From the NCBI GenBank assembly GCA_039798465.1, contig JBDKGA010000038.1, positions 1 to 45,405 of the forward strand: DNA of 45,405 nucleotides. Direction: 5' to 3'. The notes beneath the pieces are model-generated. The model ran no database searches. It was not told where the DNA came from and was given only the letters and a program-made list of their open reading frames with translations. Shown in pieces: positions 102 through 44,847 of this stretch. Each line of letters opens with the position of its first letter. Position 1 is the stretch's first letter. The position numbers and the translations under genes were made by a program. The DNA is from Candidatus Parcubacteria bacterium (GTDB lineage: Bacteria; Patescibacteriota; Minisyncoccia; Phycocordibacterales; UBA2100).

Positions 102-202
102 GCGATAACAGTGGTCATGCAGGCCTGCTCGCAGCGCGACGGCGCGCGAGGAGCGCGTCGACAGCAGTCGACGACGCGTGCCTGCATGACCACTGTTATC
201 GC
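102..202 (+). repeat. Compound inverted-repeat element A (23-bp perfect arms, structured 55-nt interior)
   Basis: 102-124 (gcgataacagtggtcatgcaggc) is the exact reverse complement of 180-202. The interior has a cgcg/cgcg mini-hairpin (135-146), GAGGAG (148-153) and a cgtcga/tcgacg hairpin (156-173). Confidence 0.8.
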
Positions 203-5892: not shown

Positions 5893-5897
5893 AAAAA

Positions 5898-5919
5898 GGC
5901 CGCATCTCGCGATGCGGCC
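5898..5919. terminator. Bidirectional intrinsic terminator
   Basis: ggccgcatc/gatgcggcc 9-bp stem with a 4-nt loop. It is flanked by an A-run upstream and TTT downstream, between convergent genes. Confidence 0.7.
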
Positions 5920-5942
5920 TTTACACAACGAATTTCGAAAAG

Positions 5943-6253: not shown

Positions 6254-7522
6254 CTACCGAATCGCCGCCTTGAGCTTTTCGACATCTGCATGCGGGCCAA
6301 TCACGGCAAGCGCGAGTCTTTCATTTTTGAGAATATTTTTGGCTACGCGCTGTACGTCTTTGGCAGTCACCTTATCTATCGCTTTGAGTGATTCTTCAAG
6401 TGTGCGAATACGCCCCAAGTGAATAAGCGAAGAAGCAGCGTGCTCGGCAATAGAATCAGACGATTCCATCGCAAGGGTGCTGGTGCCCTTCATGTACGAC
6501 TTTACTTTTTTGAGCTCGGTAGCTGGCACCGCCGTGCGTGCAATCTTTTTAAACTCATCGACGATAACTCGTAAGGCCTCCTCAAGCTTGGCGTGCTCCA
6601 CACCCGCCTGCACGGCGAGGTAGCCAGTGTCGGGATATTTATCTACCCACGCGTGCACCGAGTAGGCGAGCCCGCGCTTTTCGCGCACTTCGGTAAAGAG
6701 TCTGCTCGACATGCCGCCGCCGAGAATAGAGGACAAGACCGAGAGTGCGTACTCGTCTTTGTGCCCAAAGGGGTACGCTGGCACGCCTATCATGAGCTGA
6801 GTTTGATCAGTCTTTTTTTCTTTGATGCGCACTCCCGCAGCGGCTTGTATTGTCTCAAATTTTTCAGGGACCGATGGGGCAGTTGCTTTGAGCGCACCAA
6901 ATACTTTGCTTACTTTGGCCAGGACTTTTTTCTGATCAAATGCACCTGCCACACAGACCACTGTGTTGGTCGGGCCATAGTGGCGAGCACGATACTCTTC
7001 GAATTCTTTGCGCGTAAAGCTGCGAATATTTTCTTTGGGGCCCAAAATCGTGCGGCCGAGCGGGTGCTCATCGCCAAAGAGGAGCGCATCAAACACATTG
7101 TCGATGGTGCGCATCGGCATGTCTTCGTACATGTCTATCTCTTGAATCACTGCGCCACGCTCTTTTTCTATTTCCTTGGACGGGAGAGTGGAATTGAGAA
7201 AAATATCCGTTACCACGTCGAGTGCCTTCTCGAGATTTGCGCTCGAGGTTTTGGCCCAGTAGGCGGTGCGGTCTTTGCTGGTGAATGCATTGTACTGGCT
7301 GCCCAAGCCATCGAGCTCTTCGCTAATCGCCTTTGCAGTAGGGCGCTTTTTGGTGCCCTTAAAAAACATGTGCTCGAGAAAATGAGCCAGGCCATTTTCG
7401 CGCGCAGTCTCAAATCGGCTACCGGTGCCGCTCATTACTATTGCAGTCGCTGTCTGCGTCCCTGGCATGGGCGCGAGCACAATGCGGAGGCCGTTTTTAA
7501 GGATGTGGATGTGGTATTTCAT
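6254..7522 (-). CDS. M16 (pitrilysin) family zinc peptidase
   Basis: HFLEHMFFKGT carries the HxxEH motif, and the protein has two-domain M16 length. ATG 7522 (MKYHIHILKNGLRIV) is preferred because TACGAT (7529-7534) lies 6 nt upstream. The ORF track extends to 7621. Confidence 0.88.
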   Translation of the reverse strand: MKYHIHILKNGLRIVLAPMPGTQTATAIVMSGTGSRFETARENGLAHFLEHMFFKGTKKRPTAKAISEELDGLGSQYNAFTSKDRTAYWAKTSSANLEKALDVVTDIFLNSTLPSKEIEKERGAVIQEIDMYEDMPMRTIDNVFDALLFGDEHPLGRTILGPKENIRSFTRKEFEEYRARHYGPTNTVVCVAGAFDQKKVLAKVSKVFGALKATAPSVPEKFETIQAAAGVRIKEKKTDQTQLMIGVPAYPFGHKDEYALSVLSSILGGGMSSRLFTEVREKRGLAYSVHAWVDKYPDTGYLAVQAGVEHAKLEEALRVIVDEFKKIARTAVPATELKKVKSYMKGTSTLAMESSDSIAEHAASSLIHLGRIRTLEESLKAIDKVTAKDVQRVAKNILKNERLALAVIGPHADVEKLKAAIR

Positions 7523-7892: not shown

Positions 7893-7913
7893 GGCACTCT
7901 CACGACGACGAAA

Positions 7914-7948
7914 GGCCTCGCGCACCGCGCGAGGCCTTTTTCTTTTTT
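7914..7948. terminator. Intrinsic terminator shared by convergent small ORFs
   Basis: ggcctcgcg/cgcgaggcc 9-bp stem (7914-7936) followed by TTTTTCTTTTTT. Confidence 0.8.
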
Positions 7949-17909: not shown

Positions 17910-17985
17910 TACTGCTCCACTAAACTATCCAATTGTCATATTTGCAGGAGCAAGGGGTCGTGATAGTCTAAGAGACACGAAACGT

Positions 17986-18567: not shown

Positions 18568-18641
18568 TTGACACAAACACGCACGCGATTACAATGTACC
18601 TGCTCCACTATTCTTAACATATGTTAAATTTAGAGGAGCAG
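18568..18641 (+). promoter_or_regulatory. dnaK promoter P1 plus nested palindromic operator candidate
   Basis: TTGACA (18568-18573), 16-nt spacer, TACAAT (18590-18595). Downstream is CTGCTCC (18600-18606) ... TTAACATATGTTAA (18614-18627, perfect 14-bp palindrome) ... GGAGCAG (18635-18641). Confidence 0.6.
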
Positions 18642-21693: not shown

Positions 21694-21794
21694 GCAAGAC
21701 ACATGCTCGCAAGGGGGTTCGCGCCGCGGCGGCGGTGCGACTTCAGGATTTTTCGAGCACGAAAAATGCGTATCCGAGCAAGCATGAGTCTTGC
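21694..21794 (+). repeat. Compound inverted-repeat element D
   Basis: Arms gcaagacacatgctcgc (21694-21710) and gcaagcatgagtcttgc (21778-21794) pair at 15 of 17 positions. Inner hairpin atttttcg-agca-cgaaaaat (21748-21767) is preceded by cagg. Confidence 0.6.
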
Positions 21795-42831: not shown

Positions 42832-43275
42832 TTATTCTCCCTGCACTACCACGGTGATAGTGGCCTTGTGGCCATGGAGATCGGCTACTACTTCAAAATC
42901 GCCAAATGTTTTGATGTGTTCTGCTGCTGCCAGGTGATGTGCGTCTACCTGCACACCATGTTCGTGTACTATCGCTGCCGCGATATCGGCCGGTGAGATT
43001 TGTTTGTAGAGGTGTCGCTGCTCGTTGCCCTTGGCAAAAATCGTAACGATTTTTCCCTGCAATTTTTGTGCGTCTTTCGCGGCCTGCTGCTCAGCCGAAG
43101 CGTGTGCGCTCTGTTCTACCCCCTTTTTCTTTTCGAGTGCTGCGACACGCTCGGGAGTCGCCTGGACCGCCTTGCCCTGTGGAATCAGTGAGTTCATGGC
43201 ATAGCCATCACTCACCTCTTTTATCTCGTCGCGTCTCCCCACGCCCCCTACATCCTTCACGAAAATGACTTTCAT
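42832..43275 (-). CDS. rplI: 50S ribosomal protein L9
   Basis: [37 protein letters not shown]. Confidence 0.92.
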
Positions 43276-43281
43276 ACCTAC

Positions 43282-43309
43282 ATTGTAGAGAGAAAATGCG
43301 CCGAGTCAA
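43282..43309 (-). promoter_or_regulatory. rplI promoter (leaderless spacing)
   Basis: Minus-strand TTGACT (43304-43309), 16-nt spacer, TACAAT (43282-43287), then 6 nt to ATG 43275. Confidence 0.65.
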
Positions 43310-43318
43310 AGTGGCACA

Positions 43319-43417
43319 CGGCGAACGAGGTTTTCGAGAACCTCTGCAGCGCGACGGCGCGAAGCTGAGGAATTTTATAGCAATAAAATTCCGTGTTCGA
43401 GGAAACCTCGTTCGCCG
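43319..43417 (+). repeat. Compound inverted-repeat element B (15-bp perfect arms)
   Basis: cggcgaacgaggttt (43319-43333) is the exact reverse complement of 43403-43417. Core gcagcgcgacggcgcg (43346-43361) is identical to 131-146. Inner hairpin ggaatttta-tagcaa-taaaattcc spans 43369-43392. Confidence 0.8.
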
Positions 43418-43439
43418 CATGAAAAATCGTAGCGAACAA

Positions 43440-44675
43440 TTATTCAGACAGGTACTTAATCGCCGCATCCATCTGCGGATCTTTTCCAGCCTTCACGTCT
43501 TCTTCCGTAATATCCGCTTCTATATCTGGCTTGATTCCTTCGAGCGGGATTTGCACGCCATCGGGCCCGAGCCAGCGCGCCACCGTGAGCTTGAGCGAGG
43601 TGCCCGGAGAAATCTCGACGAGCTCTTGCACCGAACCTTTGCCAAAGGTGTTGGTGCCTATGAGCTTTCCGACACCGTAGTAGCGCAGTGCATCAGCAAG
43701 AATTTCTGATGCCGAGGCAGAGCCCTTGTTCACGAGTATTGCCATCTTGAGATTCTGATTAAACACATTGTACCCAAACGAGCGGTGCACAATGGTGGGT
43801 GCGTGGCCGTCGTAGTCTTCGCTCACAATCACCTTCCCTGCTGGGGTAAACCAGCTCGCCATATCGACCGCCGCTTCGAGGTAGCCCCCAGGGTTTCCAC
43901 GCAAATCGAGTACAAGCTTGGTCTTCCCCGATTCCACAAATTCACGCAGCGCACTGCGGAATAGTTCGGGCGCGTTTGAGGTAAAGGTGGCGACCGAGAT
44001 GACAAACACATCGCCTTTTACCTTTGTCTCAACAATCGGGACGTTTATGACATCGCGCGTTACCTCTATTTCTTTTGGTGCCGCCCATCCTTCACGCTGT
44101 ACCAAAAGCGTTACCTGTGTCCCCTTGGGACCGCGAATCATTTTTACTGCTTGGGTGACATCCAAGCCCTTAGTGTCTTTGCTATCTATTTTCAAAATCT
44201 GGTCGCCACTCTTGAGGCCGGCGCGTTCGGCGGGCGTGTTTTTGAGTGGAGAAACCACGGTGAGCACTTCGCTCTTTACGGCAATTTCCATTCCCACGCC
44301 TTCAAAGGCACCACTCATGTCTTGAGCAAATTGTTCGTTTTCTTGTGGTGGTAAGAAAAAGGTATAGGGATCGTTGAGCGAAGATGCAAGGCCTCCTATC
44401 ATGCCCCACACGCGCTTATCGTTTTTGTCTTTGGTGGTGGTCGCTACGGGAGTGGTCGAAGACACCGCGGCAGGAACAAATTTTTCATCTATGACACGCC
44501 ACGCTTTCCATACCGGAGAAAAGTCGACACCTTCTGGCGCGCCCGAAACCAAGCTCCCCCCAATCCCCCGCGCAACCAACTGGCGCTCAGTAAGAAAGCC
44601 AATGCCAAACCCGACGAGCAGTGCCGCGAGTACCAGGCCCACCAGCTCAGGAGAACGAACAAAGCGATGATACAT
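43440..44675 (-). CDS. S41 family C-terminal processing peptidase
   Basis: PDZ segment (GMEIAVKSEVLTVVSPLKNTPAERAGLKSGDQI), LVLDLRGNPGGYL, NKGSASASEILA and TFGKGSVQ. GATACT (44683-44688) lies 7 nt before ATG 44675. The ORF track gives GTG 44699. Confidence 0.88.
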   Translation of the reverse strand: MYHRFVRSPELVGLVLAALLVGFGIGFLTERQLVARGIGGSLVSGAPEGVDFSPVWKAWRVIDEKFVPAAVSSTTPVATTTKDKNDKRVWGMIGGLASSLNDPYTFFLPPQENEQFAQDMSGAFEGVGMEIAVKSEVLTVVSPLKNTPAERAGLKSGDQILKIDSKDTKGLDVTQAVKMIRGPKGTQVTLLVQREGWAAPKEIEVTRDVINVPIVETKVKGDVFVISVATFTSNAPELFRSALREFVESGKTKLVLDLRGNPGGYLEAAVDMASWFTPAGKVIVSEDYDGHAPTIVHRSFGYNVFNQNLKMAILVNKGSASASEILADALRYYGVGKLIGTNTFGKGSVQELVEISPGTSLKLTVARWLGPDGVQIPLEGIKPDIEADITEEDVKAGKDPQMDAAIKYLSE

Positions 44676-44745
44676 GCGGCTAAGTATCGCATGCGCCACG
44701 GGCGGTGGAAAGGATGATGTCTGTATACAAGCATGTGGCCTCCAA

Positions 44746-44770
44746 AATACACAGGGTAACCCTGTGTATT
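44746..44770. promoter_or_regulatory. 25-bp near-perfect palindrome (operator or bidirectional terminator candidate)
   Basis: aatacacagggt-a-accctgtgtatt has 12-nt arms that match apart from the central base. It has T-runs on both strands and lies between the S41 peptidase promoter and the promoter region of the small + strand ORFs. Confidence 0.5.
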
Positions 44771-44847
44771 TCGTTTGCGAGTCTTGGAGGCGGTGTTATG
44801 CTGCGTGCGAGAGGATAGGTAGAGGTAATTCTATATTGTGAAAAGAT

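Follow-up and report, generated by a model that had tools for sequence, protein, structure and literature searches.

The S41 peptidase gene and rplI of a Candidatus Parcubacteria bacterium are separated by a spacer that contains a long compound palindrome, element B, and the question raised by this locus is whether such a structure serves the adjacent genes, as a switch or attenuator of one of them, or belongs to something more widely distributed. Following analysis of the whole 45,405-nt stretch of DNA that carries it (hereafter the window) and of loci from other genomes, B was found to belong to a family of Y-shaped palindromes, copies of which are dispersed over intergenic spacers of CPR (Patescibacteria) genomes. 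The family was previously uncatalogued: Rfam 15 has no match, and a limited search of the literature on CPR repeats and structured RNAs (which does not establish absence) returned nothing relevant. Judging by the source names of the homologues found, the window belongs to a Kaiserbacteria-like member of the Parcubacteria. Genomes of the CPR are tiny and tightly packed, dispersed repeats are unexpected in them, and very little is known about their mobile DNA and regulatory RNA.

The sequence of B agrees in most respects with its initial annotation. Its 15-nt arms (43319-43333, CGGCGAACGAGGTTT, and 43403-43417, AAACCTCGTTCGCCG) are fully complementary, the 16-mer GCAGCGCGACGGCGCG is common to B and to a second palindrome, element A, and GAGGA occurs where it had been placed (Table 1). 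The AT-rich hairpin that follows is present, although it had been given as 9 bp with the loop TAGCAA and is better described as 10 bp with the loop AGCA. As claimed, B is flanked by the S41 peptidase gene and a promoter-like site of rplI, and it is not a canonical U-tract terminator: there is a T-run on neither side, and a terminator scan found no site there. The core-sense strand of B is antisense to both rplI and the S41 peptidase gene. A 29-nt stretch inside rplI (43021-43049) has 72% identity to the 3' arm of B and its flank (43407-43435; matching letters CTCGTT...AAAAATCGTA.CGA), a likeness that is probably due to chance.

Table 1. Y-shaped elements of the window and features adjacent to element B
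Feature	Position	Strand	Remarks
Element B, whole Y-shaped palindrome	43319-43417	+ (core-sense strand)	R1 71.1 bits, E 3e-17
B P1 outer stem, 5' arm	43319-43335	+	pairs with 43401-43417, 17 bp, one G.T
B P1 outer stem, 3' arm	43401-43417	+	
B inner P1 helix, 4 bp	GAAC 43338-43341 with GTTC 43395-43398	+	
B P2 hairpin	43343-43368	+	CTC-T-GC-A-GCGC[GACG]GCGC-GAA-GC-T-GAG
B 16-mer core GCAGCGCGACGGCGCG	43346-43361	+	within P2
B P2 bulged A	43348	+	
B P2 tetraloop GACG	43353-43356	+	
B GAGGA	43367-43371	+	P2 3' end, junction and first P3 pairs
B P3 hairpin, 10 bp	43369-43392	+	43369-43378 with 43383-43392; loop AGCA 43379-43382
B conserved (C)CGT junction 3' of P3	43393-43394	+	
S41 peptidase gene	43440-44699	-	
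rplI	42832-43275	-	
Promoter-like site of rplI, TTGACT-16-TACAAT	43282-43309	-	10 nt from B; context, outside the element
Element A	102-202	+	23-bp perfect P1 (102-124 with 180-202); R1 64.6 bits
A P2	128-150	+	core 131-146
A P3	153-177	+	AGCA loop 163-166
Element C, diverged third copy	21694-21794	+	R1 30.4 bits, E 2e-6
C P1, imperfect	21694-21710 with 21776-21794	+	
C P2	21719-21740	+	loop GGCG
C P3	21746-21769	+	AGCA loop 21756-21759

Element A and element B occupy opposite ends of the window and are 43 kb apart. A is preceded by a separate canonical terminator (1-30) and followed by a DUF8128-like gene (220-1593, + strand), upstream of which it lies. The likeness between A and B reaches, with small indels, over CTC(T)GCAGCGCGACGGCGCG..GC(T)GAGGA, and the same three-way junction is predicted for both, whichever strand is folded and whether RNA or DNA parameters are used (z-scores of -6.8 to -12, with 0/200 shuffles as stable); with DNA parameters, too, the minimum-energy structure is the Y fold. 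A diverged third copy, element C, was found in the window with a covariance model of the family (R1, described below). It begins directly 3' of the dnaJ stop codon, and its P2 sequence is unlike that of A and B while the architecture and AGCA loop are kept. The P1 and P3 sequences of A, B and C are all different, and the three are not recent copies of each other; the compensatory upkeep of the fold in all of them nevertheless suggests selection or arm homogenisation beyond simple selfish decay. Elsewhere in the window no other matches to the arms of these elements were found at up to 3 mismatches, and we rejected on these grounds the idea that the arms were copied from nearby window sequence. 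The A outer arm may be a partial copy of its local flank: TGTTAT in the 3' arm (193-198) occurs again 12 nt on (205-210), and this second TGTTAT falls within TGTTATACT, a -10-like box of the DUF8128 gene whose conservation extends to relatives (TGATATACT in locus L160).

Could the resemblance between A and B be a chance or compositional match of two unrelated GC-rich palindromes? The initial annotation had considered the 16-mer unlikely to recur by chance. In a k-mer census of the 45-kb window, the A/B 16-mer was the only direct repeat of at least 15 nt, but one unrelated inverted 16-mer is also present, so the bare match is not significant; one such match per 45 kb is about what is expected by chance. 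The placement of the match is more telling, as the census found A and B to be the only local perfect inverted repeats of at least 15 nt in the window, and the 16-mer occupies the same internal position in both. A scan for the core plus GAGGA, using one genome per species, then returned more than 118 loci. Most of these are in genomes of 60-77% GC, in which the core arises randomly and is flanked by arms of only 4-9 nt. Thirteen loci are from MAGs of Paceibacterota, Kaiserbacteria, Taylorbacteria, Parcubacteria and Saccharibacteria, and each of these has perfect arms of 8-27 nt at a constant distance from the core, with the P3 hairpin in all except one (L107). Frequent cores without arms had been proposed as the sign of a compositional match; such cores were indeed found in high-GC genomes, but 13/13 of the low- and mid-GC CPR loci have the same architecture, and since CPR cores always lie within it the 16-mer is not merely compositional. 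With the same architecture recurring, with covariation, in about 30 CPR copies and with model E-values of 1e-15 to 1e-20, we consider coincidence to be extremely improbable.

A covariance model, R1, was built from 13 copies. CPR members with both hairpins score 53-84 bits with R1, diverged or truncated copies 27-48 bits and non-CPR matches no more than 33 bits. The model found extra copies in three known loci (L118, L018 and L043), and a stricter scan of metagenomes added 10 loci with members. There are about 27 further copies beyond A, B and C, carried on contigs of Paceibacterota, Kaiserbacteria and Saccharibacteria. Because both scans of large collections demanded an exact core, the diversity and taxonomic range of the family are underestimated. 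Of viral, plasmid and phage sequences, only viral contigs gave matches, three in number and all due to chance. A search for an autonomous version, in which the core would be followed by an ORF, was also unproductive, as the core-only matches were chance occurrences inside GC-rich coding sequence.

Copies in the family are 80-145 nt in length. The outer stem (P1) has a copy-specific sequence and closes a three-way junction with two conserved hairpins. P2 begins with 3-5 pairs that vary between copies, above which are a bulged A and the tip GCGC[GACG]GCGC, while P3 is 10 bp, commonly with a bulged A, and has an A-N-N-A loop that is mostly AGCA; the conserved junction bases are GAG(GA) between P2 and P3 and CGT after P3. 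Members were accordingly defined by a P1 of any sequence, a bulged A and GCGC[GRCG]GCGC in P2, GAG at the junction, a P3 of 10 bp capped by an ANNA loop, and the CGT that follows. By this definition B, A and C are members, with R1 scores of 71.1, 64.6 and 30.4 bits, respectively. The arms are arbitrary in sequence, while the branched core that they enclose is conserved between groups as far apart as Saccharibacteria and Kaiserbacteria. The 16-17-nt core of P2 is identical across different CPR classes, an identity that could equally be a sign of conserved host function.

Several known structures were compared with this architecture. Rfam 15 gave no matches at gathering thresholds for the whole window, and around A and B, with E-values of up to 10 allowed, the best matches (E 0.3-9) were to unrelated families; hammerhead, twister-sister and mini-ykkC were among the families without a match at threshold, and the window also has no tRNA or tmRNA genes. 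By eye, A lacks the hammerhead core CUGANGA/GAAA. The ACGR loop of guanidine-II (mini-ykkC) is excluded by compensatory variants in L118, L130 and L153, which set the register as GCGC[GACG]GCGC. Finally, GAGGA is not the ribosome-binding site of a small ORF, as no start codon is conserved at a suitable spacing from it.

The covariance-model test that had been suggested for these elements gave both of the outcomes sought, namely compensatory changes in the stems and a conserved core. In a set of 28 distinct copies, aligned by a model fit that favours structure, 98.2% of cells are paired and 14/15 pairs vary on both sides; none of 500 shuffles attained the observed covariation values, compared with 38-61% pairing in slid controls. 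Covariation is strong in both P2 and P3. Double changes in L118b, L130a and L153 provide independent evidence for the P2 register, and P1 is complementary in every copy despite its differing sequence. The claim that A and B form one family of compound palindromes with a conserved core is therefore borne out by both the model and the covariation.

In the initial annotation B was also read as an RNA switch or attenuator, acting in cis on rplI or the S41 gene, in which the P1 fold would alternate with a hairpin formed by GAGGTT (43327-43332) and AACCTC (43339-43344). These two stretches are truly complementary, the resulting hairpin of 6-7 bp is somewhat more stable than those of shuffled sequences (-8.2 against -4.3 +/- 2.1 kcal/mol), and the promoter-like site of rplI begins a short distance downstream of B. 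B is nevertheless very unlikely to be a dedicated cis-regulator for four reasons. First, a fold forced to hold the alternative hairpin is 9.7 kcal/mol worse than the Y fold, the pair probability of this hairpin in the ensemble is approximately zero, and no comparable 5' hairpin is conserved in other family members. Second, the core-sense strand is antisense to both genes, and the position of B upstream of the promoter-like site puts it outside the rplI transcript that would start there. Third, the S41-rplI spacer of close relatives is without the element. Fourth, family members lie beside unrelated genes in any orientation. Riboswitches and attenuators, in contrast, are always in sense orientation within 5' leaders, recur with one class of genes and have a conserved alternative pairing, while this family has no such pattern and an alternative helix that is unconserved and energetically negligible. 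Taken together, energetics, mixed orientation, unrelated neighbours and empty relatives largely refute a dedicated rplI regulator, and in annotation such palindromes should not be taken for a riboswitch or attenuator of the adjacent gene.

Comparison of orthologous spacers indicates that copies are gained or lost between close relatives. The S41-rplI spacer is 164 nt in the window, where it holds B, and 37-43 nt in the relatives L122, L124 (L9 protein 85% identical) and L127 (66%). Downstream of dnaJ, the spacer aligns cleanly with that of the closest relative (L151/L152, DnaJ 91% identical), from which the window differs by a 121-nt insertion directly after the TAG; this comprises C, including both P1 arms, and a 20-nt tail. 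As the empty site of L151/L152 forms no hairpin, C was not inserted into the loop of an existing terminator hairpin, although insertion of this kind is possible at L018 and L028. In the scpA-scpB spacer the situation is reversed, with a copy in L153 and empty sites in the window and L151. Such insertion polymorphism would make the element a strain-level marker. Copy density is also low and uneven, with 3 in the 45 kb of the window compared with 1 in approximately 180 kb of the partly overlapping loci of its relatives.

Three close relatives carry different long hairpins without the core at the site of A (L157 1662-1785, L159 9938-10000 and L160 3465-3556, with stems of 35, 16 and 17 bp, respectively) and, judging by these sequences, hairpins at this site turn over quickly. 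A true member (L004 5581-5685) occupies the orthologous position, between genes for a sigma-like HARE-HTH protein and a DUF8128 protein, in a distant member of the Paceibacterota (42% GC) whose downstream protein is 35% identical to that of the window; the shared site may be a hot spot, or else the occupancy is ancient. In the relative L125, the S41-rplI spacer holds at 6666-7106 a gene for a 131-aa 23S_rRNA_IVP/bAvd protein where the window has B. This gene is bracketed by long inverted arrays of GTAGTCN heptads, a second case of an insertion within a long stem.

Whole copies are also found at unrelated loci. The elements of L144/L148, L145/L149 and L130b are near-identical, including their 23-bp P1 arms, and their flanks are unrelated; three of the five contigs (L148, L149 and L130) are from one metagenome and the other two from others. 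The unit can therefore be copied whole. The mobile unit is not always the whole palindrome, however, since L018 and L028, from one MAG, have only the inner ~68 nt in common and their outer arms are locus-specific. In L071, L028, L107 and L147 the arms overlap a stop codon or gene end. Palindrome extension by template switching would explain both the locus-specific arms and those that overlap genes. No target-site duplication was found on comparison of the filled and empty C sites or in the flanks of L144, L145 and L130b, nor was a conserved target motif seen in these flanks.

The neighbours of family members, in fetched loci with genes defined by simple longest-ORF calls, are unrelated housekeeping genes. 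Copies lie mostly 0-25 nt past stop codons and so are co-transcribed, and the gaps to neighbouring genes are 0-50 nt, leaving no space for a promoter of their own. They may act incidentally as 3' hairpins, and an alternative that must be weighed here is that the element is a host-functional structured RNA, either a co-transcribed 3'-end, processing or stability element (with the long P1 serving, for example, as an RNase III site or a terminator without a U-tract) or a protein-binding RNA module. The strong covariation, the conserved loops and bulges and the positions past stop codons are consistent with such an RNA. In AT-rich lineages (L004, L011, L071 and L144) P1, preceded by an A-run and followed by a T-run, is also similar to a bidirectional terminator. 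Relative to the gene that abuts by its 3' end, however, 5 copies are sense and 10 antisense (with 5 between convergent and 2 between divergent genes), such that the conserved loops would be present in most mRNAs only as their complement. The element is missing from the orthologous sites in close relatives, which argues that the genes concerned do not need the element, and Rfam has no matching family.

Family members resemble intrinsic (bidirectional) terminators in lying directly past stop codons, including between convergent genes, and in the runs that surround the outer stem in AT-rich lineages. They differ in that a conserved branched insert of 55-65 nt replaces a loop of 3-8 nt, and in that A, B and C are without a T-tract, A is preceded by a separate canonical terminator and the scan found no terminator-like site at B or A. 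Ordinary hairpin terminators occur in the window at 1-30, 5895-5922, 7911-7939 and 44745-44771, and take the form GGCGCGCC..GGCGCGCC followed by T6 or AAAGGCC...GGCCTTT with adjacent A- and T-runs. The host organism thus has canonical terminators that are separate from the Y-shaped elements.

Orientation is independent of transcription and correlates with the compositional asymmetry of the strands. Third-codon-position GC skew was separated into the contribution of the coding strand (about -0.12) and a remainder due to the strand itself. This residual, taken for the strand of the element, was negative in 14/16 loci (p 0.004); measured on an arbitrary contig strand, the same residuals were negative in 7/16. 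Neighbouring copies are mostly co-oriented (3/3 on the + strand in the window, 3/3 in L130, two each in L118 and L018), with L043 being mixed. By the general rule for skew polarity and one dnaA-proximal locus, on which this assignment is based, the core-sense strand would correspond to the lagging-strand sequence, i.e. the leading-strand template: the L076 copy adjoins dnaN-dnaA on the strand opposite to both genes, in agreement with this polarity. If the link with skew holds, the element would help to assign replication strands in fragmented MAGs. In the window itself, most 1-kb intervals have a negative GC skew on the + strand and cumulative skew falls almost steadily throughout, also over the - strand genes at 38-45 kb. 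Between 220 and 37146 the genes are nearly all encoded by the + strand, an unusual combination with a falling skew if the usual polarity holds.

An orientation that tracks strand skew regardless of gene direction is a further argument against a structured RNA. It is more in keeping with another alternative, a host-functional DNA signal of the chromosome whose orientation follows strand or replication, such as a protein-binding cruciform or hairpin involved in replication, repair or segregation. The co-orientation of neighbouring copies, the conservation of the core across CPR classes and the copy beside dnaN-dnaA all favour a signal of this type, and a host role, at either the RNA or the DNA level, is favoured by how strongly the core is conserved and by the upkeep of the fold in the old copies of the window. 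In contrast, presence and absence vary between close relatives at three sites, the density of copies is low and uneven, and the near-identical copies at unrelated loci point to spread rather than to a fixed architecture. We therefore regard a chromosomal signal as improbable.

Wobble pairs are distributed unequally between the two strands of the elements. There are 100 G.T/G.U pairs on the core-sense strand and 50 on the opposite strand (p 5e-5), with P1 alone contributing 51 and 21, respectively (p 5e-4), and the core-sense strand has the more stable fold in 26/29 elements. Replication-associated skew mutation bias is expected to give the opposite asymmetry, and so the wobble excess of the core-sense strand looks selected. 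An excess of G.U pairs on one strand would also be expected of a structured RNA; with all of the above taken into account, we consider a host RNA to be unlikely, if less clearly so than the switch.

The family is multi-copy and polymorphic in its insertions, is copied as whole units, has no link to particular genes, is oriented in accordance with skew and has a strand-specific fold. Based on these properties, it may be a non-autonomous, copy-and-paste mobile DNA hairpin that is similar to REPINs and MITEs but lies outside those families, and that acts as a folded single strand with an enzyme supplied in trans; we place the chances of this interpretation at about even. A trans-acting partner enzyme would recognise the core-sense strand of the element in its folded, single-stranded state, and mobility would proceed through a single-stranded DNA form, the sequence being compatible with RNA as well as DNA. 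Copies would persist chiefly where the active strand is the leading-strand template, and their outer arms may grow by template-switch palindrome extension.

This predicted mobile hairpin has features of several known systems. A REPIN has a conserved short REP palindrome at either end, in inverted orientation, and a variable middle (PMC3337134), and REPINs and REP sequences are mobilised by RAYT transposases (Bertels & Rainey; PMC3337134, PMC3116915). Like REPINs, the Y-shaped elements exist as many dispersed, non-identical copies in which the hairpin is kept by compensatory change, and the A and T runs sometimes found at their flanks suggest co-option as terminators. Unlike REPINs, they have a conserved centre (P2 and P3) and variable arms, this centre is branched into a three-way junction, their hosts are CPR bacteria, and neither a REP-like unit nor a RAYT gene was seen in the window and genome fragments. 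A REP-RAYT system has a single-copy RAYT (Y1 transposase) gene in the same genome, flanked by REPs. The one Y1_Tnp match in the window and genome fragments, in L153, is not flanked by elements.

MITE-type repeats, such as the Correia/NEMIS repeats of Neisseria, ERIC, BOX and RUP, are transcribed into long hairpins, and MITEs have terminal inverted repeats that are conserved family-wide and a target-site duplication. The Y-shaped elements are similar to MITEs in their non-autonomous size, their intergenic position near gene ends, their whole-unit copies and insertion polymorphism, and the long duplex that is a possible substrate of RNase III. They differ in that P1 is common only within one recent subfamily (L144, L145 and L130b) and in that no target duplication was found.

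Elements of the IS200/IS605 type have ends with two similar subterminal hairpins and no long outer stem, and these hairpins have been reported on the lagging-strand template; in derivatives of such elements both hairpins are on one strand and insertion is 3' of a fixed target of 4-5 nt. The recombination sites of integrons (attC) have conserved outer R''/R' boxes (RYYYAAC/GTTRRRY), a variable centre and an arrangement in cassette arrays beside intI, and for chromosomal integrons the recombinogenic strand has been reported on the leading-strand template. Both systems are similar to the Y-shaped elements with respect to strand-specific secondary structure, bulged bases, absence of target duplication and replication-linked orientation. 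P2 (GC-rich with a GACG loop) is unlike P3 (AT-rich with an AGCA loop), however, there is no common flank motif and, by the usual skew polarity, the better-folding Y strand is on the leading-strand template, all of which differ from IS200/IS605. That polarity, as deduced here, is the same as in chromosomal integrons, but the outer arms of the Y-shaped elements are without R boxes and the copies are isolated between housekeeping genes.

A partner for the element presumably exists, as a core conserved between classes and a covarying junction point to an unrecognised protein that is either transposase-like or a structure-specific binder of DNA or RNA. The family might even represent a new, CPR-specific class of structured element that is single-stranded, oriented by replication and dependent on a new transposition or recombination enzyme or on a host system of junction signals, or else a new and widespread ncRNA, a prospect that we put forward only tentatively. 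No gene for a transposase or other partner was found in the 45-kb window and the genome fragments of 2-20 kb. The sole Y1_Tnp match, in L153, was considered as a candidate partner and rejected because it lies beside operator-like palindromes rather than elements.

The palindromes of L153 (CTCTCCTTGTGCAAGTT.AACTTGCACAAGGAGAG) have a counterpart in the window, where two 41-nt palindromes that are 73% alike (17912-17952 and 18600-18640, CTGCTCCAC...GGAGCA(G)) flank a gene for a PaaX_M protein (Cas2-like domain) between grpE and dnaK. In L153 the analogous pair flanks the gene with the Y1_Tnp match, which is in the same position as the PaaX_M gene. The 41-nt pair looks like an operator pair of a heat-shock regulon, with a role similar to that of CIRCE.
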